64,000 nt of DNA from Schmidtea nova. Its lineage: Eukaryota. Of the stretch, positions 13,960-47,275 are shown piece by piece (the stretch's first letter is position 1; the number at the start of each line of letters is the position of its first letter). The stretch lies in NCBI GenBank assembly GCA_044892505.1, contig CM097883.1:204414001-204478000 (forward strand), in the 5' to 3' direction. The notes below the pieces were generated by a model. It was given only the letters and a program-made list of their open reading frames with translations, was not told where the DNA came from and did not search any database. Both the position numbers and the translations under genes were made by a program.

Positions 13960-16900
13960 CGGGGCCGGGTGGTGGGTTTTTGCCGCCCTAGGCAAAACGC
14001 AAATTTGCCGCCCTATAGCCTATATGTAAAGTTCATTTTGGATTGTTAAAATCACTGTGCGTTCATCTTTCATGTTTCTCTTAATATTTGTTGTTGTAAT
14101 TATCTTTTCATGGTCAGAGAATGTGTGCGATGTAATTGTTGAAATACTAGCAAACCGTACAGACAATAGTTCAATCAGAAAAGAATGGAATGCGCCTTAT
14201 TTTTATTGAGGCAAATTCCCGAGCAAGTTCGCCGATTTCCACCTTAGAAGCCATTTCTTTCTCAATGGAGAGAATAGCCAAGTCCGATAAACGATCTTCT
14301 GCCATTGTAGATCGCAAGTAATTCTTTATTATTTTCAGTTTTGAGAAGCTGGATTCTCCTGCTGCAACAAATACTGGGAGAGTAAGCATGATGCGCAAAG
14401 CCAGAGACAAATTTGGTAATACACTGCACAGTTGATTAGTACAGATAACTACAAGCAACTGCTTTGGTGTTTTTCTCTCTTGAATCCGACGTTGTAGGCA
14501 TTTTATTTCTTCAAAAAGACGGAGGGCATCAATGTCTTTGTCACTGTCGTCAGTCAGAGCTTTTTCTAATGATCGGCATTTTTCAAGAAGGGTGGCGGAC
14601 TGATAGTCTCCTCCAATACAACTGAGAAACCCAAACACTGTGTGATGAGCATTCAAGAGCGTGAAGCGCTCTTCCAAAGAGTTGATAGCAGCGTCTAACA
14701 CCACGAAGAAAAACTGACACTTGAACGACTGTCTGGGATCTGATATTTGATCATTAGCCGCTTCATACTGAAACATTCGTTTTTTCGTACGAGCCCGAAA
14801 TTGCGTCACAGCAGGAAATGTTGGGTCTATCTCCAGATCTTTTGCTAAGCCTTCTGCCTCTTCAAGAGTTTTGAGAAAGCTGTCGTCAGAGCGATAGTTT
14901 ACGAGATATTGAATGGTTTTATTCAGCTGAGTGACAGCTTCGGACATGTCGACAGATTGAGATTGAAGCAGTTTATTCGCAAAGTTGACCTCGTAAAGGA
15001 TGATATACCAAACGACCACACTAACAACAAATTTGAAGCAACGCAGCTGAAATGCAATTCCTTGAGCATCTGCACGAGTTTGTGCGCCAGTCACTCCAGT
15101 TAGGGTCGTATCTTCGATAATAGAAACAAGGGCATCATAGACTTCTCCAATTTGATAACGTAAAACACGAACGGCATTTACTCTACTTGACCACCTCGTT
15201 TCACTGAGAAGTTTGATAGTTAAACCCGACACATTGTTTTTGAGAACCTTACAGCGATGTGTGGACGCAGAAATAAACACATACACCGCCTGTACGACTC
15301 CAAAACATTTGACAGCTTCTGTGCAGGAATGTGCAGCATCGTTGACGACGAGGTTCAGTGAATGAGCAGTGCAAGGGATATAAAATGCTTGAAGATTTAA
15401 ATCAAGAATTTTCTTCTGCACGCCATTATGCTTTCCTTTCATGTTAGAGCCGTTGTCGTAACCTTGCCCTCTGAGATTAGTCAAAACTAAGCCCATTTCC
15501 TCGATCTTCTTCACAATTAAATTCGTCATTCCAGCTCCAGTTGTTTTAGATGCGACCTCATATTGCAGAAAATGTTCGTGAACAGCAACATTCACAACAC
15601 GTTCTTCTTGAGCTTCACACAAGGACACAAATCGAATCACTAAAGTTATTTGTTCAACATGACTAACGTTTGGTGTACAATCAAAGATTATTGAGAAGTA
15701 TAATGCATTTTTGGCTTCACTAAGAATTTCATCTCTCACCTTTTTTGCCAACAATCCAATGATTTCATTTTGAATATTTTTGCCCGCATAGTGCACATGA
15801 ATTTCCTCACTTTTGATGCGCCGGATGTGTTCTTTCATTACAGGATCAAAGCTTCCTAAGTATTCAACAAATTGAAGAAAGTTACCATTGTTGGGTTTAA
15901 AAAGCTTATCGGACGAACCTCAAAATGCTAAGTTTTGAACTGCGTGTACTCTAATGAGTCCGATGAGTCTTTTCAATACTTGTCTCCTGTGTTCGACTTC
16001 TTGTTTTACGACTCGCTGAATTGGCTGCATCAATAGTATTTTCTGGACGCAAACGAACTTTTAACTCCTTCCATTGCATATAAGTTTTATGTAAGTTGGA
16101 GACACTTCATGACTTGAGAGAATAACGGACATATTTTTCCAATCACAACAACCACTGCTTGTTAATGCCACCGATTCTTTCGTGAAGAGTTTACATGAGA
16201 AACAGAATACGACGTTCTAACTTTTCGAATAAACTAGCCAAGAACGTGTCACACTTTCTCCATTCACAAGATTTCGTTTGTAGTGATGGGAACTAAATTT
16301 CCTTCCTTTATCATCTAGTGGAAATTGTGCGTCCATGATTTGTCATGAACCTCTTTTCACCAAATGAATTCTTAACGCATCGTTGAAGGCGAACTACTGG
16401 GATGGATCCTCAATATCGGCTTCTTGATGGTCGTCTGTAATATAAAAACAATAAAATGATATACAACATTCTACATAGATCATATTATAGGGACCACTTA
16501 CCTTGTGGATGATTAGCAATCTTCTCCTCAACAGTCAAATGGCATTGCGAAGAGAGAGTGTCATTTTTTTGTATGTTCCAAGAATGATAATGGATCAATG
16601 GGTGCTGATGTATCATCTTCTGTGGGTTGTTTTATTTCAGCAAACTATCCTTCATCCGCAATAAGCTTGTTGGATTTTTTGAAAATTGTATTAATTTTAC
16701 GTAACTTGGATATCTCGAGTTCTTGTTTCCTTTTCTTTTCGTCTGCCAAATTCTTGTAACCTGATCCACTTAATCTCTTTCTTCCGTCATTCATGAGATA
16801 CGAAGTATGTAGGTAGTAAATAGTCTACAGACGGTACAAAATGACAGGATGAAGCGAGGTACATTGAACAATTCACGACTGAAAATGTATTATATCTCAC

Positions 16901-20495: not shown

Positions 20496-20898
20496 TAATT
20501 AATATATTCGTCGTTGACTCATACCGTTTCCCCTCTCAAAATATTAATTTTTTCACTTAAATTAATTTTTATTAAGTTTTACTATTTATTTAAGCTAAAA
20601 CTTTTGCATTTGAATTATGCATTTTTATTTGTGCATTTTTGTGCATCCATCTGCAACAATGATGTTTTAAAAAATTGAATTTTTTATGTATTTCGTAATA
20701 TTAATTGGTTTTTTAAGTTGTAAAAAATATAAAAATTTTCAAACTAAAAGATCCAGTTAAATTTCATTTATTCCCATTTGAATAGAAAGTTAGTTTGCAA
20801 CAAATTATTCGTCAACAACAATATCTGATAATGAGGGGGTCCTCAGTAATGCCAACTGGACCCGTCTCATGAATAATGCAACGTTCATAAATTATAAT

Positions 20899-21663
20899 TG
20901 TAGTGGTCCGGAAGGCCGATAACCAAGATTCGTTCAAAGCAGTAAAAGAACATAGCCTGCCTCAAACTTTCACTCTATTCAGTATTATTGAATTTTCAAC
21001 AAGTCATTTTAATGACGAAGAAAAAAATAAACTCCAAAAAAATAACAATCTGAGTTAAAAAAAATAACTGTGGTCAAACTGTAAAACTTTCATTTTTAAT
21101 TTTGGCATTTACATTTATTTTTACATTAATTAACTTTAACTTGGAGTTTGTTTTAATATTCTGGCAGAATTTATATTTTGTTTCTAAAGTTTGAAACGTT
21201 TAACATTGTTTAAAATAAATATTTTCAAAAAGTGGACTACTAGTTTTTGATAATTGAAAATGCGTTATTCTATTGTTAAAATTTTAATTGTTCTACAAAT
21301 TTTAACACTCCATATTTTGCAAATGTGTCACAGTAATATTGTTGGATGTGGTGGTTTCGTTAAAACAGATATCATTGGATTTGCTTATCATAAATTATCA
21401 GCACAATTAATGTTTTCGGACGGAACTCTAAATTATGTGACTGATGTCCTTCCAAATGGAGCGCATTCTATTCCTATATATGATTTCGGTTTCTATGTTA
21501 CCAAAATTATGAGTCCTGACGGTTGGAATATTGAACCAACTGATGGCTACGTTATAAACATTAATAGCCAAGATTCTTGTCCAGATGACTATAATTTTCA
21601 TTTCGCTGGTTTTACCGTACTTGGTAAAGTATCAACAGCTAATATTGAAACAGGTCCACTAAA
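20899..21663 (+). repeat. 5' LTR
   Basis: TGTAGTGG...CCACTAAA, direct repeat of 27590-28354. Confidence 0.95.
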
Positions 21664-24031
21664 AATGGTGTCAGAGGAAAACCAATCTCCAATTCAAGAT
21701 GGAAATCAAACATTTCGTCCCCAAGTCTCACAACATCCAGCAACAATGAATAATTCATTTCAATTAAACTCATCTAATTCTAATAATGCAAGTACGCTTA
21801 GTCAAATTGAAGTCGTTAAGCGAATTGCAGCTGCAATGCAACCACCACCACCTCCGATGCATTTAAGCAATCGACAAAATCAACCGTCAATTCCTATAAT
21901 TCCAACCCCATTGCAAGTAAATCAAGACTCTCAAATTCCATTAGACTGTGCGCAATTAATAAGGATTCCAACCAGTTCACAAGACTCAGCTACTAACATT
22001 CGACAGGCTTTACATTTAATACAACAGAATTTAATCTTACAAAGTGATAAATCCAAGCAAGCTAACAATCATATATCAGATGCTAGCAACTCTATAGCCC
22101 CTAATCAGTCTTTAATCGTCAACAATTCAACGAATAGTAGTCTGTCAGCAATAACAATAAGTTCATCTCCAGTCTCTCCACAGAATCAAAATTCTACTGT
22201 TCTTTCTATGATTAACGTCGACGTTCAAATATTAGAAGAGATAAATCGATCGATTCCTCAGCAGAATCCAAAACCAGTAAATTCAACGCCAGTAAATCCC
22301 AATTTTTCTCTTATTCAAACGGATCCCAAAGTCGCTCAACAATTGACAAATGACTTTCAAAAGCAGTTTCTTTGCACACCGCTAGGTGCTAAGCCACAGG
22401 GATACAATTCAATTGGTCAAACATCGGAAGCAACACAAATCAACATGAAAAATTGCAATAACATCAAATCTATCGTAAATTTTTCACCAGCCCCATCGAA
22501 TATGAACTTAAACACCAACAACGATATCAATAATTCGCTATTAAAAGCTCCATCAAATTCAAAAGTCACAGGAACTCCAATATTAACAGATTTTCTTCTC
22601 TTTTCGGAACAGAAGATCAGCCCCCATTATCGCTGTGGAGTTACGTTAGCATATTTTATTATTATATTAAATTTCTATTATTATATATTATTATTTATAT
22701 CATTATTATTAAAATCATTATTATTAAAATTAACGGAGCCGCCCAATCTTCCGAATTTTAGTCTACGTCGCATATCCTATAGGTTTTTGTCAATATTCGT
22801 AAGGGTTTCCTCCTTCACATTTCACTTTAAACTAGCCCAGGACACGACTATATCAAAACTATCTACATTAATTTGCAAGCGCTTGTCGTACGAGGGACCG
22901 ACATACATATCTTATAATGGCGCAATATTAAGGAATCAGGACTCACTTTTAAGTTCTGACATATGTTCGGATTCTTTGCTGTTCTGTCATGTACCATTGT
23001 ATGGCGGCGCACCATCAAGTATAGACGATGACAACGAATACGACGATAAAAAGCCCAAACCTTTGCCTAAAAAGCAAAGAAATGTTCGAGGCGCTGCTTC
23101 TTCCGACAGTAACTCTAGACAAAATATTAATTGTCCGTTCTTTTTAGATGAGAACCAATCACCATCAACTTGGTTACTCACACTCGAAGCCCTTTTAGAA
23201 AGTTGCGGCGTTACTTCTTCAAGAGATAAATTCTATAGAATATTATCTCTCATCCCACAGGAACATTTAGGCCGCCTTTCTGCCGTTATTCGCCGCACAA
23301 CGCAAAAAACCTTTTTAACCCCTTTTGAGGAGCTCAGCACAGGACTGCTGGATTTATTTAAAGTCCCCAAACAGGAAATATTCTCAAAATATTTCAAAGC
23401 CCAATCTTTAGGAAGTTGTAAGCCGACAGAATTTTTGCAGAAGGCTTTTACAGACCTCGAACAAATGCAAAATGGGACAGCACCCGACCAAAACATGCTA
23501 CGCCAGTTCTTTTTAAGTGTACTTCCGACACACACACAACAGATACTTGCTTTATCGTCTCCGGTAGATATACACGAATTAGCAAAAATGGCGGACAAAA
23601 ATCATGAAATTGTTCCGTTAGGTGGTAAACCAGGCTCATCTGTCAATAGCCTTCCTATCGCAAGCCCGCCGATCCCATCATCAACAGAAAATGCTCTTCT
23701 TTGCGCCATTCGCGACCTTACTGATCGTATTTCGCATTTGGAACGTCATAAATCTCCGTCTCGAAATGCATCACTTTCCAATGCGTTTGACCGAAGACGT
23801 TCCAAATCCCCGGCTTATTCAAACATTTGCTTTTATCATACCAAATATGGGACGAAAGCAAATTGTTGCAACATAGGATGTGGCTGGCGAAACAAAGCAG
23901 CTACCCTAAAAATCATTGATAAGTGCATTTATCACGCACGATTTGGGGATAAAGCAAACAAATGCATCGTAGGTTGCAAATCCTACAATTCCCCACCATC
24001 TTCTCCAAACAACATTCAAAAAAACTTGTAA
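21260..24031 (+). CDS. ORF1: NOMO N-terminal fragment / Q-N-S-P-rich linker / hydrophobic segment / ubiquitin-like domain / Gag. A native start is probably the ATG at 21665.
   Basis: Single open frame, first ATG at 21260. Gag core W..TLEALL...LRQFFLSVLP..TQQILA...ELAKMADK plus two C-x2-H-type knuckles (CFYHTKYGTKANCC, CIYHARFGDKANKC). Confidence 0.88.
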   Translation: MRYSIVKILIVLQILTLHILQMCHSNIVGCGGFVKTDIIGFAYHKLSAQLMFSDGTLNYVTDVLPNGAHSIPIYDFGFYVTKIMSPDGWNIEPTDGYVININSQDSCPDDYNFHFAGFTVLGKVSTANIETGPLKMVSEENQSPIQDGNQTFRPQVSQHPATMNNSFQLNSSNSNNASTLSQIEVVKRIAAAMQPPPPPMHLSNRQNQPSIPIIPTPLQVNQDSQIPLDCAQLIRIPTSSQDSATNIRQALHLIQQNLILQSDKSKQANNHISDASNSIAPNQSLIVNNSTNSSLSAITISSSPVSPQNQNSTVLSMINVDVQILEEINRSIPQQNPKPVNSTPVNPNFSLIQTDPKVAQQLTNDFQKQFLCTPLGAKPQGYNSIGQTSEATQINMKNCNNIKSIVNFSPAPSNMNLNTNNDINNSLLKAPSNSKVTGTPILTDFLLFSEQKISPHYRCGVTLAYFIIILNFYYYILLFISLLLKSLLLKLTEPPNLPNFSLRRISYRFLSIFVRVSSFTFHFKLAQDTTISKLSTLICKRLSYEGPTYISYNGAILRNQDSLLSSDICSDSLLFCHVPLYGGAPSSIDDDNEYDDKKPKPLPKKQRNVRGAASSDSNSRQNINCPFFLDENQSPSTWLLTLEALLESCGVTSSRDKFYRILSLIPQEHLGRLSAVIRRTTQKTFLTPFEELSTGLLDLFKVPKQEIFSKYFKAQSLGSCKPTEFLQKAFTDLEQMQNGTAPDQNMLRQFFLSVLPTHTQQILALSSPVDIHELAKMADKNHEIVPLGGKPGSSVNSLPIASPPIPSSTENALLCAIRDLTDRISHLERHKSPSRNASLSNAFDRRRSKSPAYSNICFYHTKYGTKANCCNIGCGWRNKAATLKIIDKCIYHARFGDKANKCIVGCKSYNSPPSSPNNIQKNL
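21666..21677 (+). promoter_or_regulatory. Primer binding site, probably tRNA-Leu
   Basis: TGGTGTCAGAGG lies 2 nt after the 5' LTR and is complementary to a ...CTGACACCA tRNA-Leu-type 3' end. It overlaps the ATG at 21665. Confidence 0.8.
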
Positions 24032-27000
24032 TGCCATCACTCATTGCGGCTGAAGTTGATGGCAAATTACCTCCTGCACTCGATTTATTTCTAGTGAGAG
24101 CTGAATCCCCTTCTTTCAGCGTTGCTCCGAACTTTTGCAGTACTCTCGATTTTCTTGTTGACACAGGATCCAGCCTCTCCATTCTTCCTTTACAATATGA
24201 ATCTCTTTGCGATGATTCCGTTTATACCTTGAAAGCCGCCAACGGAACCATGGTAAATACACACGGTTCTTTTTCAGCAAATTTCGTTCTTCCTTCTTTA
24301 AATCAATCTTTTATATGGAAGTTCTGTGTCGCTGACGTTATCCATCCCATTCTTGGCTCAGACTTTTTGAGTTCACACAATTTGTTGGTCGATTGTCGTT
24401 CACGCCTTTTGAGAACACATTCGCACACAAATTCGTCTTTAATCATTGACACAAAAAAACTCAACATTTCCGACTCATCTGACGTTTCTGTATCTACTGC
24501 CATTCAACCCATTCATCCAAAGATTGCTACAGACATTTTAAATAAATACACATTTTCACAAACAATGCCTTTACGAAAGCAAGTCTCTGTAACATCTTAC
24601 TGCCATACTATCAACACCACAAACTCTCTTCCGGTACGTTGTAAAGTACGCCCTCTTTCGAACGAAAAACTAGATTTTGTTCGCTCCGAATTCGCTACTT
24701 TGTTGAACGAAGGCATTATAAAAAGATCTAAATCTCCATGGTCTTCACCACTTCATCTCGTACCAAAGAAAGACGGAACTTTCAGACCTTGTGGAGATTA
24801 TCGTCGTTTAAATATGATTACGGTTCACGACTCATATTCTATGCCTTTAGTAAACGACATTTTGTACAGACTTACCGAGGCCAAAATATTTTCAACTATC
24901 GACTTAGTTAAGGCCTATCACCAAATCCCAGTTAAAGAATCTGACGTGGAAAAAACCGCAGTTTTAACACCTATCGGACTTTTTGAGTACGTTTTCATGC
25001 CGTTTGGCCTTAGAAATTCCGCTCAAACCTTTCAAAGACACATCGACCATATTTTAATGGATTTACCATTCGCAATTCCTTATATTGACGATATCCTTAT
25101 TGGTTCTAAGGATGCGGAAACACACAAAAAACATTTAGATGCAGTTCTTTGCGCACTTTCTTCCAATAACCTACAAATTAATTTAGATAAGTGTTTATTT
25201 TTTAAAGAAGAAGTCCGTTTTTTAGGTCACATTATCTCGGGTCAAGGCGTCAGTCCACCATCCGACAGACTAGATACTATATCTAAGTTTCCTCTTCCAC
25301 AAACTGTTACTCAACTTCGGAGTTTTCTGGGAACAGTAAACTATTGCCACCGTTTTATTCCTAAAATTTCAGAAATTCTTTCACCTCTTTCTGGTTACTG
25401 TTCTAAACCAAAGAAATCTATAATTCCTTGGAACGATACTTCGTTGCTCGCTTTTGAGCATGCCAAAACAGCCCTTTCAAACATACAGACTTTGCATTAT
25501 CCACGAGGAGATTTGCCATTACGTTTAACCACAGACGCGTCAAACATAGCAATCGGTGCCGTTTTGCACCAGATAAACGGTTACATCCCAGAGCCACTAG
25601 AATTTTACTCAAAGAAACTTACCTCACCACAACAAAAATATTCAGCTTTCGACCGCGAACTTCTCGCTATTTACCAGTCGGTTAAACATTTTAAGCATTT
25701 ACTCGAGGGCCGTCTTTTTAGCATCCATACAGACCACAAGCCACTTGTTTACTTGTTCTCAATGAAAGACCCTTCTCCGAGACAACAACGCCAGATTAGC
25801 TATATTAGCGAATTTTCTTGCCAAATATACCACATCGCCGGCAGTGATAACATTATAGCTGATTGCCTTTCACGAAATGTAAACGCAATTATCCACTGTC
25901 CTTTATTTTCTATCGACGAACTCCAAAATAATCCTCCAGACGCCATTGATATTTCGAAATTTGGCGACAAACACATAATCAAAGACAAAATTCACTACGA
26001 CTCATCTCTTCCTGGCACTCTTCGCCCAATCTTGAATGACTCCATGAGAAAACTGGCTTTTCTCTCTGTCCACAACACGCACCACCCAGGTTCCTCAGCC
26101 ACTTTTAATCTATTACACACGTGTGTAGTTTGGCCAAACATGAGACATGATGTTAAACTCTGGGTTGCACAATGCATAGGATGCCAACGTTTTAAGATAA
26201 CTAAGCACACTAAACCTCCAATAATTCATTATCCCACTGGCAACCGTTTCGAAAACTTACACATTGACATCGTCGGCCCAGTCCCAAGTGACTGCGGTTT
26301 CTCTTACTTATTAACCATGATCGACCGCAAGACTCGTTGGTTCGAAGTCATTCCTTTACGCACCATTTCTTCTAACACTATCGCAACTTCGCTAATTCAA
26401 AATTGGATTTCACGATATGGAGTTCCCAAGTCGATCATCAGTGATCGCGGAACACAGTTTGAATCTAACTTATTTCAAGCTTTGACCGCTAAACTTGGGA
26501 TACAACATCTTCGTACGACCACATATCATCCACAAACAAACGGGTTAGTCGAACGTTTCCATCGTACTTTAAAAGCTTCTCTTGGCATTCTTTCTGAACA
26601 ACAAGGTTGGACAAAGGTTTTACCTTTCGTATTATTAGGTTGGCGAAATACACCTTCTAGGACTACAGGATCATCACCTGCTCAATTACTTTTCGGTACA
26701 AACACATCGTTACCCGGTCAACTTGTCGACTTTGATAACTCTCCTACTTTGGAAGATCTCGCGATTGCTAGAGACCATTTTTTATCAATCGACACTAATC
26801 CTGAATTCTCTTCCTCGACCACCTATAAACCTTACATTCCAAAAACATTCGAAAATGCATCACACGTCTATATTAGAAATATAACTGATGCAAGTTTAAA
26901 GCCAAGATATTCCGGACCTTACAAGCTCGTCGAGATTAAAGAAAACAACGCGAAAGTGATCGTTAACGACGCTACACAAACATTTAACCTCTGCCGTCTT

Positions 27001-27372
27001 AAACCAGCTTTAGTTTTGCTCGATGATGAACCTTCACCTGACAATCTCTCGACCCAAACCGATATAATCTCGAACTCTCACACAAACGATAATGACCCTA
27101 TCAATTCCACTGAGGACGATCTTTCCAACAACTCACCTTCATACCCGATTGTTCAAACATCAAACGCAGAAAACAAAATGACGGAAAAATCTGAATACAT
27201 ACCGTTTATCCCAGAACCGAATGACGTACTTCGTTTACCACCCATTTTGAGGAAAGCAAAGCAAACACAAAATAAACCAAAGTCCGTCACTTACAACAAA
27301 TGGGTTCGTGTCCGTTCTATTAATCAAAAACCGGATTCACCAACTAGACTAATAAGAATCTATTCAAATTAA
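23962..27372 (+). CDS. pol: Pol (protease-RT-RNase H-integrase), in the -1 frame relative to ORF1
   Basis: FLVDTGSS protease, YIDDILI RT, TTDASNIAIGAVL RNase H, HIDIVGP / SDRGTQF / GLVERFHRTLK integrase, GPY motif; no internal stops. Confidence 0.97.
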   Translation: MHRRLQILQFPTIFSKQHSKKLVMPSLIAAEVDGKLPPALDLFLVRAESPSFSVAPNFCSTLDFLVDTGSSLSILPLQYESLCDDSVYTLKAANGTMVNTHGSFSANFVLPSLNQSFIWKFCVADVIHPILGSDFLSSHNLLVDCRSRLLRTHSHTNSSLIIDTKKLNISDSSDVSVSTAIQPIHPKIATDILNKYTFSQTMPLRKQVSVTSYCHTINTTNSLPVRCKVRPLSNEKLDFVRSEFATLLNEGIIKRSKSPWSSPLHLVPKKDGTFRPCGDYRRLNMITVHDSYSMPLVNDILYRLTEAKIFSTIDLVKAYHQIPVKESDVEKTAVLTPIGLFEYVFMPFGLRNSAQTFQRHIDHILMDLPFAIPYIDDILIGSKDAETHKKHLDAVLCALSSNNLQINLDKCLFFKEEVRFLGHIISGQGVSPPSDRLDTISKFPLPQTVTQLRSFLGTVNYCHRFIPKISEILSPLSGYCSKPKKSIIPWNDTSLLAFEHAKTALSNIQTLHYPRGDLPLRLTTDASNIAIGAVLHQINGYIPEPLEFYSKKLTSPQQKYSAFDRELLAIYQSVKHFKHLLEGRLFSIHTDHKPLVYLFSMKDPSPRQQRQISYISEFSCQIYHIAGSDNIIADCLSRNVNAIIHCPLFSIDELQNNPPDAIDISKFGDKHIIKDKIHYDSSLPGTLRPILNDSMRKLAFLSVHNTHHPGSSATFNLLHTCVVWPNMRHDVKLWVAQCIGCQRFKITKHTKPPIIHYPTGNRFENLHIDIVGPVPSDCGFSYLLTMIDRKTRWFEVIPLRTISSNTIATSLIQNWISRYGVPKSIISDRGTQFESNLFQALTAKLGIQHLRTTTYHPQTNGLVERFHRTLKASLGILSEQQGWTKVLPFVLLGWRNTPSRTTGSSPAQLLFGTNTSLPGQLVDFDNSPTLEDLAIARDHFLSIDTNPEFSSSTTYKPYIPKTFENASHVYIRNITDASLKPRYSGPYKLVEIKENNAKVIVNDATQTFNLCRLKPALVLLDDEPSPDNLSTQTDIISNSHTNDNDPINSTEDDLSNNSPSYPIVQTSNAENKMTEKSEYIPFIPEPNDVLRLPPILRKAKQTQNKPKSVTYNKWVRVRSINQKPDSPTRLIRIYSN
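24019..24025 (+). promoter_or_regulatory. -1 ribosomal frameshift slippery heptamer A AAA AAC
   Basis: Sits in correct ORF1 codon phase one codon before the ORF1 stop; Pol is in the -1 frame. Confidence 0.8.
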
Positions 27373-27589
27373 TTGCACCACTGTCCACCAAGTTCTATTA
27401 GTTTTTTTTTTTTCGGTTTCCTAAATTTCTTTCGCAATTCTTTCTCAGGTTATTCCATGTCATTCACGACTCTTTCCAAATACTTTCTGGACACTACAAA
27501 ATACCATATTATTATATACTAAACTACTATATTACGTATCTACATTATAGTATTTCAAAATGTGCTCCACATCTTCCGATGAGGGCTGA

Positions 27590-28354
27590 TGTAGTGGTCC
27601 GGAAGGCCGATAACCAAGATTCGTTCAAAGCAGTAAAAGAACATAGCCTGCCTCAAACTTTCACTCTATTCAGTATTATTGAATTTTCAACAAGTCATTT
27701 TAATGACGAAGAAAAAAATAAACTCCAAAAAAATAACAATCTGAGTTAAAAAAAATAACTGTGGTCAAACTGTAAAATTTTCATTTTTAATTTTGGCATT
27801 TACATTTATTTTTACATTAATTAACTTTAACTTGGAGTTTGTTTTAATATTCTGGCAGAATTTATATTTTGTTTCTAAAGTTTGAAACGTTTAACATTGT
27901 TTAAAATAAATATTTTCAAAAAGTGGACTACTAGTTTTTGATAATTGAAAATGCGTTATTCTATTGTTAAAATTTTAATTGTTCTACAAATTTTAACACT
28001 CCATATTTTGCAAATGTGTCACAGTAATATTGTTGGATGTGGTGGTTTCGTTAAAACAGATATCATTGGATTTGCTTATCATAAATTATCAGCACAATTA
28101 ATGTTTTCGGACGGAACTCTAAATTATGTGACTGATGTCCTTCCAAATGGAGCGCATTCTATTCCTATATATGATTTCGGTTTCTATGTTACCAAAATTA
28201 TGAGTCCTGACGGTTGGAATATTGAACCAACTGATGGCTACGTTATAAACATTAATAGCCAAGATTCTTGTCCAGATGACTATAATTTTCATTTCGCTGG
28301 TTTTACCGTACTTGGTAAAGTATCAACAGCTAATATTGAAACAGGTCCACTAAA
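27590..28354 (+). repeat. 3' LTR
   Basis: Direct repeat of 20899-21663, preceded by purine-rich GAGGGCTGA and followed by the TSD. Confidence 0.95.
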
Positions 28355-28358
28355 ATAA
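27945..28358 (+). pseudogene. NOMO: Captured NOMO (nodal modulator) N-terminal fragment in the 3' LTR; same copy at 21260-21663
   Basis: Signal-peptide-like MRYSIVKILIVLQILTLHIL, then IVGCGGFVK...GTLNYVTD..PNG...IPIYD.G...P.GW..EP...C...NF.F.GFTV.GKV, which matches the recalled NOMO1 N-terminus. The stop is supplied by the flanking TSD. Confidence 0.85.
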
Positions 28359-29204
28359 TGAACACAGATATCCAAGTTGCGTCAACTCCGTCACTAACGC
28401 AGTCGGTGAATCTATCAAATATAAATTTATTGAAGGTGACAACTAAGAATATATTATGTAACAAATCATGACATAACTATATGAAATTAAAAAGTTAATA
28501 TCTTTTACGGAACTCATTTTATTGATGCCACCTAGCAATTGCATTTGGATAATAATAATTATTATTTAGATAACAATAATTTATTTGCGACCCATTGAAT
28601 AAGTCAAGCATAAATGTGCACAAATTTTCTGTAAACTTTAAACATGGAAATCACACAACATTTTGTAATTATTTACAAATATAATTTGTAGAAATTTATC
28701 AAAATAATAAATTTTTGAATTTTGTAATGCCAATTCCATTCTATTAATGGTAATTTATTTCATTTATGGAAATCAATTGAAAAAATGAAAGTCAATTATT
28801 ATTAAATTTGGATATTTTAATCCCTTTTTATTGAATAATAATATTATTACACTTTTTATTGAATTTTTATCGACTTCATATATATTCCTATTGATCATTT
28901 CTAAATTTTAAAATTATTTAAAATCGAAATTCACAAAACTAGGTAAAAATGAACTTTGAAACATTCTAAATTTTTTATATGAAAAATTTGTTTCTTAATA
29001 TAGAAAAATATCAACGAAACGAATGAAAATAAATAAAAATAATCGAAAAAAATCGTGTTTAGCGACGAAAAAAATTCCAAAAATGGCTCATTTGTCAAAA
29101 TATGGATTTTTGCATTTGAAATATTCGGTTGGCAGCGAGTGAGTCACGGAGAAATCGATAAATTGCATTTTTGAATTTCATTTTCATTAGTTGTCATTTG
29201 CTAA

Positions 29205-38911: not shown

Positions 38912-40367
38912 TACCATTTTCCGGTCAATTTAGTCTTTTTGCCAACCAATTTAGTCCTTTTTAAAATAATTTAGTCTTTTTACCAATCACTTTAGTCCTT
39001 TTATCAAGCAATTTAATCTTTTTACCAATCAATTTAGTCCTTTAATAATATAAATTGAAATTTATAAATTTTATAGCAGTTTAATATAAAAAAACCAACT
39101 ATAAATTTATTGATGAACATACGCCATTCCAGCTGCACAGTTAATAATATTACAAATAATATACCTAAAATACCCAGAACAATCCCTAGAATTTATAGTT
39201 ATTGTTTCTGCCATCATCAGTTCAGATAATGTACCGGTTACACCTTCCCTTAATTTAGATCGAACTCCATTTTTAATTTTAGAAAATGAGTTTTCAATTG
39301 GGTTAAGCATATATGAATAAGGTGATAGGAACTTAAAATCAAATCCAGATTGAGAAGTTATTCTTTTGATATCATCTCTTCGGTGAATACGCGCATTATC
39401 TAAAATTAAACAGGCGTTCTCCATTTCTTTAACATCTCTTAAGTACCTACACAGCTCATTAATATATTCATTAAATATATCCGAATTAACTGTTGAATTA
39501 GTAATGGTTTTACAAAATCCCATTCCGTCAACTGTGAGACAGGCAATTAAAGAAACCGAATGACCCCTGACAGTTGGCATTCTTACTATAGCCCTTGTTC
39601 CTCGCTTAGACCTTCCATATGATCTTTTGAGGTGTAAATTAAAACCGCTCTCATCAATAAAACGGCTTTTGAATAATCATTTTCAAAGTAATTATTGAAC
39701 CATATTGAGTATTGCTTTCGTAGTTCAATTTTATCGGGCATATTTACCCTTTCAAGCTCTCGATGCGTTAATTTTGTCGTGATTTTAAGCTCTTGAAGGC
39801 ACGTATTGATTGTTGAAACGGAAACAGTGCCTGTTTTGCGATTCAATTTGAAGAGCCCTTTTGATTTCATTTAACGTAAATTGAGAATTGAATGTAACTA
39901 TATTCTCAATTTCGTTGATAATTTCAGGTGTTAGTATCTTTTTTTGACTTCCACCTTTATTTTTCAACTCTGTCTTGCCTGTTTTTTCGTAGTTTTTTAA
40001 TATAGTTTTTGCTGATCTATAATTAATTTCTAATAATGAAGAGGCCTCTTTAATGTTCTGCCCTTGATCATTAACTAAACGTATTAAACTTAGTCTTTTT
40101 TTCATTTGAAATAGAATTGTTTTTTCCAGAGCTGTTCCTATTTCTAGTACTATGATTAATTCTGTCTTCACCGTTATTATTCATTAAATAGGGTATTAAA
40201 AATTTTTTTAAATCCTTGAAAAGCGCTGTAAATTAATGATTCTAAATAAATAAAGTATAAAATATTTATTAATTCGAAAATGACTATATTGACTGAAAAA
40301 AGACTAAATTGCTTGATAAAAGGACTAAATTGATTGGTAAAAAGACTAAATTGACCGAAAAATGGTA
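38912..40367 (-). mobile_element. Tc1/IS630-like DD34E element with frameshifted transposase (ORF pieces 39785-40171, 39586-39870, 39107-39580)
   Basis: TA TSDs; TIRs TACCATTTT(C/T)CGGTCAATTTAGTC with tandem AATTTAGTC subterminal repeats; LILDNARIH...LSPYSYMLNPIE has 34 residues between D and E. Confidence 0.92.
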
Positions 40368-40568: not shown

Positions 40569-42269
40569 TTATTCATGAAACTTTGAAAAACACTCTATAT
40601 GAATCTGAACCCGATATTTCTGGCAGATATAGATTGCCTGGCTTTTGCAAATCTTGCACCTCCTCCTTGCGTTTTCTTCATTACGGATTATGATATGATT
40701 AGTTCTATCCTCCCTCATCGCTCCTGGTAACATGTTTTTGCTGGGACTTCCAGGGTTGTTATTTCTTCTTAGATGTTGGTAGTTTACCTCCAGATCAAAT
40801 TCTTCTTCACTTTTCAATAAAGATAGTACAATCTGGGATTTGAAGTAAATTTGCTGATAGTGGAGCATGTTGCCAATTGGTAAATTTCCCAGGCATTGAC
40901 AATAGCATCGTCGATCACATTGGAAAACGCCTTGATTGTATTGGTGGATAAAATTCGGTTGAGGTATCATGTTGTGCTTTTTTTCTTTCCGGTTGTATCT
41001 CTTTATATTTCTTAATGGCTCAAGAGTATCAAAGTTGGTAATAACTTTTACAACAGAATTGTCATACAATCTAACAGCAAATACTTTGTTTATATAGTCA
41101 AATCTATAATCAAAATTTCCTTTTGGTTCTTTCACCAAGGCTTTTGTTGTTTGAAGTGGACAAGAAGTAATCCGGTTCTCTCTCACCGACCAGTTGCAAA
41201 AAAATTCATTTCCGATAATAAGGTAAAAGGGTAATGGCTCGCAAAGAAGTTATCAAAAATACGACTTGATTATTGGGGTCAGGAACAACTTTCAACAAGT
41301 TTATTACTACCCTTTCACTTAAACTAAGGTTATCATTATCTTTCTGTGAAGCTCCTCCAAAAGGGTCAAATTGGTGCACATAGCCTCCAGCTGAGGCTAT
41401 ACCCCATAAGTTGAAACCAAATCTCACTGGTTTCCCTCTTATGAACATCTTGGCAGAATGACATCCAAAATATGGCACCATCTCCTCATCAATCGATATC
41501 TTATAGGTGAACACACCAAACTGCATATAGCGTTTATTTAATTCGTTGAAAAAAGTCTCAGCTTAGAAAACTTATCAGATTTGCCTAATTTATTATTATC
41601 AGAAAGATGAATGTACTTCTTTATTTCATCAAATCTGTTCCGTGACATAATTTTGCGTATGAGAGGGATCCCTTTATCTTCATCTAAACTCCAGTAAAAT
41701 TTTGTTTGTGGAAGAGAGTGATAATCAGTGAATATAAGGATACCAATAATTTTTTTAAATCAATACGTGACATAGAAAATGTGGTTATTTTTACTGTGAG
41801 CATATTTGATTGAAAACTCTACTATTTCATCCAAAAGTGATTTATCAAAAAAAAGTTAAAACGTTTGTATGGATGTCAAACTCCCAAACTTATTCTTTAT
41901 TTCTTCGACACATCTAACCTCATAGTTTTCAGGAGTGTCACTGTAAGTTGAAGCACACTTCAGCCATTTTGTTATAGGTTTCTTCTTTTTCTGTTTTGGT
42001 TCTTTAGAAGTATTTTGTGTAGTTTAAGGTACTATATCTGCTTTGTTATCTAAAGTGGTGTGAATTTCAAATGTACCCACTCCATACAATAGTAATCCAT
42101 CACCTCCATCATTTATAATTGTACTTCCATCTTCTATTTCTTCCTCATCAGTAAGTTCGTCGACTGCAGGAGATATGATGACTGCATTAATGTCTTCTTC
42201 TGTATCTAATTCCCCAATAACATCTATAATTTCGGCAACTGTTTGTAATCTTTTCTTGTAGAAAATCAT
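40569..42269 (-). pseudogene. Fragmented piggyBac transposase
   Basis: SIDEEMVPYFGCHSAKMFIRGKPVRFGF, C-terminal Cys-rich RRCKIC...C...HIECF; multiple stops and frameshifts. Confidence 0.9.
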
Positions 42270-43499
42270 TTATTATTCGAAAAATCAAGGCAAAAAATAT
42301 GTTCTAAAATGTAATATAATTTTATAAAAATTAAATGTCAAGAAATAATGTATTTACAAAGTTTTTACACTGCAGAATACTTTATAAGCACCAAATATTC
42401 ACTTAGAAGTCTTATTTTAAACCGCACAGGTCACAATTTGTCACACAACAAACATGAACTGAGCAACTCCCAACAGATGTATGAATCATTCACTGATGAG
42501 TCATAAGATCAAGATAATAAAGAAAATATGCATCTATGTGCGTTCCACATATATATCACATAGGAATATGAACATAACAGTTAAACTAAATATAATTTAA
42601 TATTTCAAATAACTTATTGAAAAATATTGGAAAAAACGCGATTTCAGTATTATGCTTTTAACGAATTGTTGGAATCATTTTGAAATTATAAACATATAAA
42701 CAGACAGCTAATGAATGCTTTTAACATACATAATAAGTTTTGTATAATAAATTCGTTTTAACTGCATTGTGCGAAGTTAAACTTTGCATTGCGTGTGTGC
42801 AACATTGGGAAGAAATGGGTTAATGTTACGAAATATGTAAATATTCAAGTTTTTAATATATTATTTTTGGAGTTGCACAAAAATGCACAAATAAAAATGC
42901 ATAATTTAAATATAAAAATGTAAATCTTAAAAGTTTAAATTAAGAGAAAAACCTATCAAAAATTAAGTGAAAAATTAATATTTTGTGAGGGGAAACAGTA
43001 TGAGTTAACGCCAAATATATTAATTAAAATTTTATGGGGCTCCAGATAAAAATATTACAAAAATAAGGATTAATTAGCGGTTGGTAGCTGTTCACTTTTA
43101 TAGTTTGCTATAGACAAATGGGATATTTTTAAGACTCAAACCACTTTGTGATAAAAAATGTTTGAAATAAAGTTCGATTCAACGTTTATTCTTTATTACA
43201 AGATTCTTTTTCAAATTCTGTTTCTCTTTGAAAATCACTCGATATAAACAAATCTATTTTCTTTTAAATTGATTATCTAAAATAAATTAATTATCACATT
43301 CCCCTGTGATAAGTACGACGAATCCAACTTGTACTGATCAAGATAGGAAGGCTTCCTTCGATTGCGAGCCAAGCTCGTGTCTTCCTCACTCTCTTCTGGA
43401 TTTCTGATGTCAATCTGATTGTCTTCAAATTCGCATTCGACATCGCTGGATTCGATAGGTTGATTTGGCTACACTCGGATGTCTGCAACATGACGCGGT

Positions 43500-46169
43500 A
43501 CTCCGTCAACCTCTACGTTGGTAGGTGAATTAATGCCAGTGATGATTCCACTGGACCACTGATCAGTCCATTTGGTCGGAACTGCCTTTATAACAATATT
43601 CTGACCAGTTTTAAATTTACTAGATACTACGCGCTCCTCCTCTACATCTCTGTAAAATTTCCATTGGTTCTTAAATAGCCCCTCTGATAAGCTGTACTTT
43701 GATTCTTCGCGTCTTTGGGTGCCATGTTATACCAATAAACAATGTCCCGTGGGTCTGAACGACTCCTGGCGGCATGGGATTTTATTGTCCGGTGGTTTCT
43801 CTCCACGATCCCATTCCCAGATGGACGGTAGGCACATCTGTATGTCGGCTTTACATCCCATCTACAACATAAATCTTGTAAAGATTTAGAATTAAAACTA
43901 GGACCATTGTTTATGAGTAGCTCACGAGGCGGACCTCTCTCTCGAAACACTTCTTCGAGATTTTTCACAATATTTTGTGCATCTTCATATGGTATCCTTC
44001 TCCAAATGGCAAATCTGCTAGGCCCACAATCAACGATAGTCATGAAAATGGATCCTTCGTAGTGCGTTACATCTACAGCTAGTCTTTCCCAATTTTTATT
44101 GACCCCTAATGATCCGTTTTTCCACTTAATTGGCAACGGATCGATAGATTTACATTCAATACAATTTCTTACCACATTTTTTATGACGTCTCGTGGGGTT
44201 TCTGGGTTTTCTAACTGAATGAAATAAATAGATTTTTCCAGACCAAAATGGTGTTTGTTGTGACGGTTCCTTACTTGTTCTGACGATAAGCCCACGCAGC
44301 CAAAAGACGCTCTAGACTTCAACCACCTCTCTGGAACGCGTGTCAGTATATCTGCTCGGTTTTCCGCTGATTTAACCAATTGCACATGAATAAGAATTCT
44401 GTCATTCTCGATAATCTCTTTTATTATTCCCAAACGACGTCTAATCAGAGTCTCTGAAATTCCATGGACACGAATCTTATATTCATTGTTAAGAACTGTT
44501 CTCAACCAGCCTACTACCGTCACCGAATCTACCATCAGCTCAATTTTTTTAACGCCCAATTTGATTGCTAAGTTTACGCCTTTAAGAACTGCATCGAGCT
44601 CAGCGACGTTTATATGTGAATGATCATCACTTTTCCTGAGCCAAGTTGCATCCTCCACGACGTGGCCATTTATCACTAATACGACACCCAGTGCTAAACT
44701 GCTAGCATCACACCATAAAGTACAGTGATCCCTGATGTTTACAGTCCAGCTTCCTTTGACTGGATCGTCCAGTTCAATGAGACTCATCACTTCAGTCAAT
44801 CTCGATTCGCACTCTGCTCCGACGAGATCATCCCAATTTGTACCATCCACAATTCTCTTGATAAAACTGCAAGCCACTCTGAGCCACCCCGCGACCGGAT
44901 AATGCCCAATAAGCTTTCCACAAATAGAAAACAATTTACGCCGAGTAACCTTACCTTCAATTGGGTCAACTATATTTCCTCTTGACCATAGCAGGTTACC
45001 GTGACGATTGCGTTCAATTTTTAAACCGAGAACCTTTGTATTCGCTGGCTTCGTTACTAATCCATATTGAGCCAAATGTTTCACCACTTCATCGATACTG
45101 ACCAAACTCGTGTTAACAGCTATGTCATCGATGTAGTGATCTGTCGCATTCAGGATTCGCGAATCAAGACTCAGCACCTTTCTCAACACTAAGGACATTA
45201 TCTTTGGAGCACAACTAAGACCAAATCCTAGTCTTGTAAGATAATACGTCTTCTTTTTGTAGCAAATCCTTTGGAATTCCCAAAGATCAGTGCTTACATG
45301 CAACTGTAGATAAGCATTTTTTAGATCAAGCATCGATAGCTGTTCTCCCATCTGTCTCCATTGTTTAGGCTCTCACCACAAATATTACAATAGCCAGTGT
45401 GACTCTTCACAAATTCATTGAGTTCCCTAAAGTCAAGAACGGGTCGAACATTTCCTTTGTTTTCTTGTACTGCAGCTAGAAGAGGAAGAATTCCGCAGCC
45501 GGTTTCTTCAGCGGGGGTTAGCCAGCCTTCCATTATCCATCGCTCTACTTCAGCTTCATATTCTTGTAGCACTTCAGGCTTAATTGCGTATTCGGCAACG
45601 TTGTTCCGCAATATTTTAGGTTTGTCTTTCCATTTCCAAGATACTGTCCACTTGTCTCCGTCAAAACTTGCAACGAAATCCTCATCGTCGATTTTCACTT
45701 GTTTTTGAACTAAAGCCGACATGGATACTCGAGTGCATTCACCAAACTGTACTCCATAATTGTCAATTGAGACTCCCCCAAGGCGTTCAATCGCATCAAG
45801 ACCTAAAATAACATCCACTCCGGTAACAAAATTCGACATTATTAAGCACTTTAACAAAAAACTTGTTCCTCGAACAGATAAATGACACTAACTCTCTCCT
45901 TCACAGTGGACTCTTCTACCATCTACTGCAACAACAACTCTGACTTCACCACTTTCTTCTGCACAGATACGGGAAACAATGGTTTGCGAACATCCAGAAT
46001 CGACTAGTCCAGTGCACGATTTTCCATTCACTCTAAGTCTGACAAGTACTCGCGCCATCTCAGACATCACTGAGAAACCGCTGGCGCTCCAGTTTCTCTT
46101 CTGGCGTTTCCCTGTGCGTTTGAAGAGCATTGTCTCGACGAATGCCCTATGATTCCACATGTCCAACAC
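43500..46169 (-). pseudogene. pol: Pol in at least three frameshifted pieces
   Basis: GLVDSGCSQT protease, RPVLDFRELN and HYIDDIAV RT, WCDASS RNase H, AVDVTH / GNGIVERNHRTIK integrase. Confidence 0.92.
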
Positions 46170-46759
46170 TCTTTAGAGGGGCATTTATTTTTGAAATGTC
46201 CCGATTTTCCACATCCGTAGCAAAGTTTGACTTCTTTACCCGGCGCAGAACCACTTCCTTTCACTGCAATTAGACAAGTGAAGCCATTTTGTTCTGATAT
46301 TAGTGCTCGAGCTTGTCGAACAACTTCAGAGAGGTTCATTTCGAAGATCCTTGCTAAAGCTCTGAGTTGGTGGGAAACCATTGATGGAAGTCCGACTACA
46401 AATGCTCTCTTGGGAAGCCCATCATCATTTATTTCAGCCAGCGTAGCTAATCGCTGCAAATCTGCAAGAAAAACATCAACTGGCTCACCATTCCACAGAC
46501 GACTGCGAAACGTGTCATATGCCTGGAATCCATCCATCGAAAAGGCATCTGTTAGGGATTTTTCAATTGCGTCGATGTTTTCTTTGTCCTTCTCCGTCAG
46601 GTGGTCATAAACAAGAAAAGCTTGTCCATCAAGCAGTAATGGGAGAACGAAGGCCAAATCTTCGATATTTTGATGCTTGGCCACTAACTTCAGCTTCTTA
46701 AGCCAAGTTGAAAACTTACCTACTCCATTGTAGGGCTTGATAAATTTTTGCATCTCCAT
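46067..46759 (-). CDS. gag: Gag with two CCHC zinc knuckles
   Basis: CYGCGKSGHFKNKC and CWTCGIIGHSSRQC; ATG just downstream of the 5' LTR. Confidence 0.9.
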   Translation of the reverse strand: MEMQKFIKPYNGVGKFSTWLKKLKLVAKHQNIEDLAFVLPLLLDGQAFLVYDHLTEKDKENIDAIEKSLTDAFSMDGFQAYDTFRSRLWNGEPVDVFLADLQRLATLAEINDDGLPKRAFVVGLPSMVSHQLRALARIFEMNLSEVVRQARALISEQNGFTCLIAVKGSGSAPGKEVKLCYGCGKSGHFKNKCPSKECWTCGIIGHSSRQCSSNAQGNARRETGAPAVSQ

Positions 46760-47275
46760 TATAGCCGCGATAGCTTGTGATAAAAAATGTTTGAAATAAA
46801 GCTCGATTCAACGTTTATTCTTTATTACAAGATTCTTTTACAAATTCTGTTTCTCTTTGAAAATCACTCGATATAAACAAATCTATTTTCTTTTAAATTG
46901 ATTATCTAAAATAAATTAATTATCACACACTTTCTTAAAATTTGGAAAGGAAAATGATTGTTTTACTGTTTTATCTGCTATGAAAATACATTTAAAACTT
47001 TTTTCAAAGAAATCTATTAACCAAAAGGGTAAGATTGCTGTTTTATCTAATATTAATTGAAGTAAACATTTTGAATATTACAGTTAAAAATAATCAAAAT
47101 CATATATTTATGGTAAAATGTTAGAACAATTCATTGAAAACTTTTATTTTGTCCTGTAGTAAATCATGTATGATTTTCTAAGTGAGATATATAATAGTCT
47201 TTTATATTGAACTAAATAGTTCATTCTTCATTCATTACCTTTACTTTATAATTTTAGACAGAATCCTATTAACGG

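Follow-up and report, generated by a model that had tools for sequence, protein, structure and literature searches.

Host-derived leaders in the LTRs of a Schmidtea nova Gypsy-type retrotransposon, interchangeable and in frame with gag

A Gypsy-type element with part of NOMO in both LTRs

We analysed a window of 64,000 nucleotides from the Schmidtea nova genome (GenBank assembly GCA_044892505.1, contig CM097883.1, positions 204,414,001 to 204,478,000), which contains an intact, young Gypsy-type retrotransposon of 7.5 kb (Table 1). The hallmarks of Ty3/Gypsy elements were found, namely two direct long terminal repeats (LTRs), a short 5-bp target site duplication (TSD), a primer-binding site (PBS) and a polypurine tract. 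The two LTRs, each of 765 bp, are one base apart and their termini (TGTAGTGG...CCACTAAA) read TG...AA rather than the usual TG...CA. Within pol, Pfam domains follow the order RVT_1, RT_RNaseH, Integrase_H2C2 and rve, with a protease motif read from the frame, and neither ORF gave a Pfam match to an env domain. We suspect that the element belongs to a Mag-like clade of Gypsy and presume that its PBS matches tRNA-Leu; no tRNA gene was found within the window. An insertion-free site was detected in 3 out of 4 public DNA runs (X1-X3). The library type of these four runs, which are contigs, is not recorded; their adapter ends and the presence of the empty site led us to treat them as DNA. The TSD, the empty site and independent insertions numbering in the dozens rule out segmental duplication or an assembly artefact as the source of the structure.

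Table 1. Features of the element, in window coordinates
Feature	Position	Strand	Evidence or remark
5' TSD ATAAT	20894..20898	+	
5' LTR, 765 bp, ends TGTAGTGG...CCACTAAA	20899..21663	+	
NOMO-derived segment (~44 nt upstream of ATG + ~132 codons)	21216..21657	+	Parent match; 3' junction GGTCC
Predicted signal peptide, host NOMO start codon	21260..21334	+	KD19 maximum 2.08; by hydropathy
NOMO first beta-sandwich domain	21353..21601	+	PF22898 E 6e-14
PBS TGGTGTCAGA, read through in frame as K-M-V-S-E	21666..21675	+	
N/Q/S-rich linker, predicted luminal, 15 N-glycosylation sequons	21665..22636	+	Shuffle comparison
Predicted transmembrane helix, AT-rich triplet-like coding	22637..22735	+	KD19 2.39
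Ubiquitin-fold domain ending Gly-Gly	22784..23008 (GG 23003-23008)	+	PF00240 weak; AlphaFold2/Foldseek
Gag capsid region	23132..23602	+	DUF7041 match below cut-off; helical model
Two Cys/His knuckle-like motifs (nucleocapsid)	23828..23970	+	
Slippery heptamer A AAA AAC, predicted -1 frameshift into pol	24019..24025	+	
pol frame, open: protease motif, RT, RNase H, integrase	23953..27372	+	
Polypurine-tract-like stretch before 3' LTR	27578..27585	+	
3' LTR, second NOMO copy; frame 27945-28358 stops in TSD	27590..28354	+	
3' TSD ATAAT	28355..28359	+	

The preliminary description of this stretch held that both LTRs carry a fragment of the host gene NOMO. This was borne out by matches to PF22898 (NOMO1-like_1st) above cut-off in both repeats (E-values 6e-14 and 3e-15) and by the parental NOMO locus (G000:C1:200.62 Mb), which is 96.3% identical across LTR positions 318-750. 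The captured segment occupies the 3' part of the LTR, the putative U5 position, and includes about 44 nt of host sequence upstream of the ATG. The proposed fusion to gag was likewise recovered as one frame of 925 codons, stop to stop from 21254 to 24031 and passing through CTA AAA ATG GTG TCA GAG, and the 3' LTR frame was seen to end as described, at a TAA inside the TSD. The suggestion that the chimeric LTR had been replicated also holds, as the genome contains 128 PF22898 matches, 29 of them within open frames of 856-928 codons, and 19 of the 19 examined NOMO 5' junctions are in phase. The coding sequence had been said to run to the LTR terminus; the frame does so, while identity to NOMO ends about 6 nt before the LTR end. 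What could not be upheld was the missing intron as a sign of RNA-level capture: the stretch of the NOMO parent that was taken up is itself intronless, and the comparison is uninformative for this cassette.

Serial replacement of host pieces in one LTR slot

NOMO has no special status and is only a recent member of a set of interchangeable cassettes. Across sister copies, at least nine distinct pieces of host origin occupy this one slot in the LTR; besides NOMO they include a methyltransferase (PCMT), an acid phosphatase, a lectin and tetraspanin-like and claudin-like sequences. A total of 326 LTR/PBS junctions was counted. The junctions are in phase with gag in 42 out of 44 cases, and 8 out of 9 cassettes start with a hydrophobic signal or anchor, compared with only 3 of 146 Met-initiated Gag homologs taken as a control. 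A bias toward genes with signal peptides could also come from packaging at the ER. The single lectin copy and one old 3' LTR (L176) have no hydrophobic start, the N-terminal hydrophobic stretch sits in another frame in decayed G and H copies, and a readable cassette is missing in eight of the oldest copies.

The order of replacement was recovered on a tree of the ubiquitin-like (Ubl) and gag sequences (61/66 rows), and each newer cassette retains remnants of its predecessor at short shared sequences (microhomologies). Microsimilarity is present at both NOMO junctions (TGGTCC). Introns of the parent are absent from the cassette for 3 of the 4 parents located: PCMT cassettes are missing 4 (short form) or 5 (long form), two of which measure ~45 kb and ~11 kb, and cassettes D and E are missing one each. 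Because these cassettes lack parental introns, the sequences indicate that PCMT, D and E were captured at the RNA level. Captured pieces bring about 33-44 nt of host upstream sequence, and in E about 140 nt. Genome searches did not find the parent of the acid-phosphatase cassette (~20 loci were inspected, mostly LTR copies), cassette D has no Pfam or Atlas match, and cassette E may resemble the N-terminus of RNF103 (score 0.86), which we treat as a lead.

One cassette trimmed to the signal peptide alone and a claudin-like one of 55 codons are each present in both LTRs. The tetraspanin-like cassette stops after helix 3 and the claudin-like cassette after helix 1, and we take both to leave the following linker outside the cytosol. 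Relative to the parents, replacement and silent changes number N21:S4 in the NOMO cargo and N17:S2 in the PCMT cargo, and some copies of enzyme cargo have lost catalytic-motif residues. In the comparison with its parent the NOMO fold shows no purifying selection, and the folded domain itself is likely dispensable.

A predicted membrane-anchored Gag precursor

Two features missed by the preliminary description make sense of the fusion: a transmembrane helix and a ubiquitin-like spacer ending in Gly-Gly. ORF1 runs from the leader through a sequon-rich linker, the helix and the ubiquitin fold to the capsid. The linker, which has no Pfam match, contains 15 sequons against 7.6 +/- 2.3 in shuffles (p 0.004), an excess that is significant only in young copies (p 0.004-0.006; four older copies p 0.05-0.14). 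In 54 of 56 copies the helix segment has a length divisible by three, and such in-frame changes are partly expected because the helix is encoded by AT-rich triplet-like DNA. From shared variants, dN/dS was 0.03 for RT, 0.18 for the capsid, 0.32 for the Ubl, 0.63 for the linker and 1.13 for the helix. The PF00240 match to the Ubl is weak (E 0.0095); its AlphaFold2 model is a beta-grasp that Foldseek matches to SUMO/ubiquitin. The Gly-Gly is invariant in alignment A2 and occurs in 57 of 65 family copies and in 31 of 31 close, long database homologs; among matches with at least 55 residues before the capsid it is found in 38/55, versus 3/94 shorter ones. The in-frame ATG at the PBS is retained in 52 of 55 junctions, and translation may in fact begin at this ATG.

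A second family of the genome, distant from the first (Gag 24% identical), has a parallel design: one helix lies where the LTR ends, a loop with Ig domains separates it from another helix, and Ubl-GG follows. Here too the number of membrane crossings ahead of Ubl-Gag is even, with unrelated parts. The PBS of this family is read in another frame, one without the PBS ATG, and its loops, of which alternatives occur, have no sequon excess. In the closest sister family the cargo consists of OGT-like TPR repeats, and neither a signal nor a helix is clearly present; membrane targeting is therefore not a property of the whole clade. Further, unverified gene predictions among database proteins have pieces of H2A, 5'-nucleotidase, SCC3 and CNOT1 as cargo.

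We consider it reasonably likely that the exchangeable in-frame leader provides a start codon and an ER signal to a membrane-anchored Gag precursor that is cut by a host deubiquitinase-type protease after Gly-Gly. In such a scheme, reverse transcriptase would, within a few bases of priming, very probably switch to a host mRNA packaged alongside, copy toward its 5' end and jump back, and the piece would therefore be copied into both LTRs. Translation of the leader would then quite probably set the topology, with the linker luminal and Gag cytosolic; if the leader were absent, the helix would take over as signal anchor and Gag might be directed to the lumen. Finally, a cut after GG would probably free capsid and nucleocapsid, which may be why any leader is tolerated.

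An alternative that we regard as less probable, and still deserving some weight, is that the cassettes are tolerated passengers acquired with a capture bias. The Ubl cut would make Gag indifferent to upstream sequence, the only reason for keeping the frame would be that an upstream ORF in another phase blocks gag, and signal-peptide genes would dominate because the element RNA is packaged beside ER-bound mRNAs. Cargo domains without purifying selection are consistent with this, as are the one old LTR without a hydrophobic start and the relatives with cytosolic or nuclear cargo, whether OGT-like TPR or the H2A, 5'-nucleotidase, SCC3 and CNOT1 pieces of the unverified predictions. Passengers do not readily account for the replication of cassettes cut to the signal alone, the odd number of helices that each polytopic cassette contains (n=2) or the even crossings that the second family reaches with unrelated parts, and packaging at the ER would itself need leader translation and targeting.

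It seems unlikely that the captured domain itself matters, as a host-mimic or entry/adhesion module that changes over time and is exposed at the surface of the cell or particle, in effect a pseudo-envelope fused to Gag whose turnover is driven by host pressure. The cargos are unrelated truncated enzymes, some copies of which have lost catalytic-motif residues; the signal-only cassette has replicated; and Pfam identified no env domain in either ORF. A replacement excess in NOMO of 15:1, counting alleles shared by three or more distinct rows (p 0.03), does point in this direction, but it weakens to 21:4 at two or more rows (p 0.13); PCMT has 17:2 (p 0.12). These counts are small and not independent and make positive selection on the cargo suggestive only. 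Sequon gain in young copies, the Ig domains in the second-family loop with its alternative versions and repeated cassette replacement along the tree would also fit display. Finally, we find it very improbable that the cassettes go untranslated and act at the DNA or RNA level, as promoter-proximal sequence, 5' UTR or camouflage from small-RNA silencing, with Gag beginning at the PBS ATG or further down. Retention of that ATG and the host upstream sequence brought in by the captured pieces would agree with such a role, yet it predicts neither in-frame fusion for every cassette type nor hydrophobic starts, and the second family reads its PBS in a frame that lacks that ATG.

Known systems and implications

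We compared the element with known systems as they are described in the cited papers. LTR-mediated retroposition proceeds by template switching at microsimilarities (median 6 bp), with maize Bs1 cited as an example (Tan et al. 2016, PMC5131818). As here, fragments of spliced host mRNA become attached to an LTR element where the two have a short stretch of sequence in common, and are then replicated further. Those retrocopies are internal and their loci act as non-autonomous elements (PMC5131818), whereas the piece described here lies inside both LTRs, in frame and serially replaced, in elements with open gag and pol.

Gammaretroviral glyco-Gag is similar in that a leader which lies upstream in frame and contains a hydrophobic stretch yields a form of Gag that is glycosylated and placed in the membrane. 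That leader is virus-encoded and conserved and starts from a CUG upstream of the Gag AUG (PMC4528783). The leader described here, by contrast, is host-derived, with a host ATG and signal peptide, can be exchanged and starts within the LTR; the predicted location of Gag is cytosolic, behind the ubiquitin fold. The hallmark of glyco-Gag, a virus-encoded upstream CUG leader with an LGDVP motif, was not found in the leader of the element.

Ubiquitin insertions in pestiviruses are cleaved by host ubiquitin hydrolases, and BVDV sequences were among the matches obtained. In cytopathogenic pestiviruses, as here, ubiquitin-like sequence sits directly before a viral protein (PMC13517609), but those insertions are sporadic and recent and occur in an RNA virus, whereas the Ubl of these elements is old and diverged and forms a constant component of Gag throughout the clade. 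Yeast Ty1 shares co-translational ER targeting of LTR-element RNA and Gag tied to particle assembly; Ty1 Gag enters the lumen and then returns, and the abstract mentions neither a captured host leader nor a Ubl (Doh et al. 2014, PMC3945221). The giant Gypsy elements Burro and GYPSM1 also have an ORF1 with host-like domains, including a SUMO-like one, but are ~30 kb with Gag N-terminal and the extra domains behind it (PMC6431247), while the element described here is 7.5 kb with its cargo in the LTR ahead of Gag. A full-text literature search that covered neither Repbase nor subscription journals returned no paper on this architecture.

The ubiquitin-like spacer, conserved across many database proteins, points to a possible unreported route of Gag processing. 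More tentatively, these elements may represent a widespread, undescribed Gypsy clade in which the Ubl Gly-Gly is a universal adaptor and the LTR a slot that samples host mRNA 5' ends. In that case two distant families of this genome might each, on their own, have arrived at a Gag precursor that spans the membrane and presents a changing set of host domains on the non-cytosolic side, an envelope-like role placed ahead of Gag, with cargo turned over under host pressure.

Because of the LTR cassette, over 120 partial copies of the single-copy NOMO gene seem to exist in this genome, which can mislead annotation, RNAi experiments and expression studies. Every 3' or solo LTR, moreover, terminates in an open frame with a start and a signal that is able to run into neighbouring DNA. 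Capture of host genes by LTR elements is usually regarded as an uncommon accident whose product is a passenger with no future. In this family it has happened repeatedly, at a single slot and in frame, the elements concerned keep gag and pol open, and the successive captures fall into order on a tree. These elements offer a natural experiment on how retroelements gain membrane-targeting or envelope-like modules.

The NOMO-carrying element and its parent gene

The capture of host NOMO coding sequence in an LTR, in frame with gag, is real. As the preliminary description held, both 765-bp LTRs carry the NOMO piece, the TSD is clean, and a single frame runs from the LTR, with the NOMO signal peptide from ATG 21260, into gag (see table). 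The two LTRs differ by one base, each scores above the cut-off for PF22898 in a Pfam profile search, and the 5-bp TSD is ATAAT. The element is Gypsy-type by structure, and an A AAA AAC heptamer sits in the overlap of its two ORFs. The N-masked parts of the window all lie outside it. In 3 of 4 public runs, contigs connect 20893 with 28355, which shows the insertion to be polymorphic.

Coordinates of the element, of other sequences in the window and of related families (L numbers are loci of the same genome)
Feature	Position or locus	Strand	Basis or content
Retrotransposon element	20899-28354	+	LTRs, TSD, ORFs
ORF1	from 21254, open 925 codons	+	reading-frame analysis
ORF2	23953-27372	+	RT, RNase H, integrase in Gypsy order; -1 frame relative to ORF1
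Second retroelement	43146-46927	-	153-bp direct repeats, zinc knuckles, RT, DUF7047, integrase; several frames
Fragment resembling the Monjiviricetes fusion glycoprotein family	51155-51715	-	E 4.5e-13
hAT, DDE_3 and DDE_Tnp_1_7 transposase pieces	14171-15919, 61387-63923, 39107-39676, 40569-41249 (-)		
Second family	L187-L193, L195, L196, L198, L199, L201-L206		LTR-end/PBS junctions
Sister family	L081:1146-9794, L112, L113		1369-bp LTRs, LTR-encoded N-terminus through PBS

The parental NOMO locus was found as a complete gene at G000:C1:200.62 Mb, with 96.3% identity to the LTR from about 44 nt 5' of the ATG through codon 130. This parent has no intron across the captured part, so the absence of introns, previously offered as a sign of RNA-level capture, is inapplicable to NOMO itself. 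Genome-wide, 128 of 129 candidates matched PF22898, 29 of these matches lying within frames of 856-928 codons by our own count, and the 35 LTR pairs measured were 98.8-100% identical. An apparently solo NOMO-type LTR (L044:4492-5290) occupies the strand opposite the parent gene, about 30 kb away from it. At L165:841-3963 a 3' LTR sits in frame within the pol of another element, presumably BEL/Pao-like, giving a 1041-codon frame that begins with the NOMO signal peptide.

The LTR ends (window 21656-21663 and the family copies listed) read CCACTAAA or CCACCAAA, non-canonical relative to the usual ...CA. Within LTR positions 1-290, all variants of the family share only the first ~40 nt, and positions ~130-290 are ~78% similar to the region upstream of the parent of cassette E, so U3 may be very short. 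An additional LTR and PBS stand immediately 5' of a full element at L051:413-2147, and tandem elements likewise occur at L092 and L193.

An exchangeable coding slot at the LTR end

Two queries, the U3 part and the Ubl region (for the second, 150 of 219 candidates were scored), recovered family members without NOMO, whose LTRs terminate in other coding pieces entering the same junction, where the PBS is read as K-M-V-S-E. There are at least nine such host-derived cassettes including NOMO; pieces I and J are uncertain and extra to the nine. Pfam matches above cut-off identify a PCMT methyltransferase (E 2e-24), a histidine acid phosphatase (E 8e-15) and a single-copy L-type lectin (E 1e-5), and weak matches point to tetraspanin-like (E 0.002) and claudin/GSG1-like (E 0.1) pieces. 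Cassette E bears only a tentative, lead-level resemblance to the RNF103 N-terminus; D and G, also among the nine, were assigned no name. The fusion frame is kept at 42 of 44 junctions (NOMO 19/19, PCMT 12/12, phosphatase 6/7, D 3/3, E 2/3). Distant paralogs (~27%) of the D protein form tandem arrays at G000:C3:157.1-158.1 Mb and C2:402-403 Mb.

Capture took place at the RNA level: four parental introns are missing from the short PCMT cassette and five from the long one (two of these introns measure ~45 and ~11 kb), and one each from D and E. It was also serial. The tail of E closes the long PCMT cassette, and PCMT-type sequence persists directly upstream of the NOMO 5' junction in the NOMO LTR. 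NOMO joins at TGGTCC, a motif found both in its parent and at the end of PCMT-type LTRs, 6 nt before the terminus. A midpoint-rooted Ubl-gag tree (61 of 66 rows; the other five had gaps or short matches) forms a ladder whose early rungs are I with unreadable old copies, G, H, F, E, D, long PCMT and phosphatase a. On its last rung short PCMT, NOMO, phosphatase b and two D copies are intermixed on near-identical Gag, suggesting that co-active variants exchanged LTRs. The cassette would occupy the U5 position, and the capture series fits template switching during minus-strand strong-stop synthesis; such switching is described for internal captures in PMC5131818. Separately, 119 bp of E sequence (96.6%) lies in unrelated DNA without LTR matches (L151:2944-3062), possibly a separate capture.

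The LTR-end/PBS pattern occurs 326 times in the genome, and 17 of 20 sampled sites outside the known family lists belong to a second, young Gypsy family (Gag 24% and Pol 49% identical). Its 505-bp LTR codes for an L6e ribosomal-protein-like piece and finishes with a helix; the PBS is read in another frame, as N-G-V-R, and the frame goes on through a loop with Ig domains or, alternatively, one rich in N/S, to a second helix, Ubl-GG (a ubiquitin fold ending in Gly-Gly) and capsid. No sequon excess was found in these loops. A closer sister family has TPR repeats, which we take to be OGT-like, before Ubl-GG, and a clear signal or helix is absent.

ORF1 anatomy and selection

After the PBS, ORF1 encodes an N/Q/S-rich linker, a hydrophobic helix, a beta-grasp domain, Gly-Gly, capsid and knuckles. 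The linker of the window element holds 15 sequons where 7.6 would be expected (p 0.004); a second young copy shows a similar excess (p 0.006), and four older copies are non-significant (p 0.05-0.14). The helix keeps the frame in 54 of 56 copies and can still be made out in most of the oldest ones, although its triplet-like DNA weakens the in-frame argument. The Ubl domain is a beta-grasp in an AlphaFold2 model, and Foldseek pairs it with SUMO, ubiquitin and ISG15. GG stands immediately ahead of capsid in all 31 long homologs inspected, one with near-canonical ubiquitin before it, and among 149 of 151 aligned hits it occurs in 38 of 55 with long N-termini versus 3 of 94 with short ones; the 17 long ones lacking GG are lower-ranked. 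Several homologs have H2A, 5'-nucleotidase, SCC3 or CNOT1 pieces upstream, in unverified gene predictions.

For variants common to several copies, dN/dS was 0.03 in RT and RNase H, 0.14 in integrase, 0.18 in capsid, 0.32 in Ubl, 0.63 in the linker and 1.13 in the helix; private ORF1 variants were mostly near 1. Shared changes from the parents number 21 replacement to 4 silent in the NOMO domain (p 0.13; 15:1 and p 0.03 at a stricter threshold), 17:2 in PCMT (p 0.12) and 4:4 in the NOMO signal. By these counts the captured folds are not conserved, and positive selection on the cargo is only hinted at.

Hydrophobic leaders and a possible ER route for Gag

A hydrophobic signal or anchor begins 8 of 9 cassettes. 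It lies in the fused frame in NOMO, PCMT, phosphatase, D, E and F (KD19 hydrophobicity score 1.6-3.4). G and H are decayed, and their first helix falls in another frame. The lectin copy has no hydrophobic start; its domain is presumably luminal. Hydrophobic starts were found in 3 of 146 control Gag homologs beginning with Met. Against a background of about 30% of genes encoding signal or membrane proteins, eight such starts through chance would be very unlikely. Both LTRs of one element carry a phosphatase cassette pared to its signal peptide, and both LTRs of another a claudin-like cassette of 55 codons. One old 3' LTR without a hydrophobic start, its 5' partner lost, is a counter-case.

Such a bias could also arise if cassettes were tolerated passengers captured preferentially from ER transcripts, a reading to which we give a minor share of the probability. 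Functional display of the cargo, on which the replacement counts bear, seems improbable, and a role exercised without translation, to be set beside the in-phase junctions, more remote still. Known systems resemble the element in part: LTR-mediated retroposition (PMC5131818) in capture, glyco-Gag (PMC4528783) in its upstream hydrophobic leader and pestivirus ubiquitin insertions (PMC13517609) in the spacer, yet it is a member of none, and the layout of Burro elements (PMC6431247) is unlike its own. A search of full-text literature, with Repbase, subscription journals and supplements outside its scope, did not find the architecture. Ty1 offers a precedent for assembly linked to the ER (PMC3945221).

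We therefore favour, as the probable though by no means certain reading, a chain in which the captured leader would provide the start codon and direct the precursor to the ER, the linker would enter the lumen, the helix would stop transfer, and Gag would stay on the cytosolic side until cleavage after GG.
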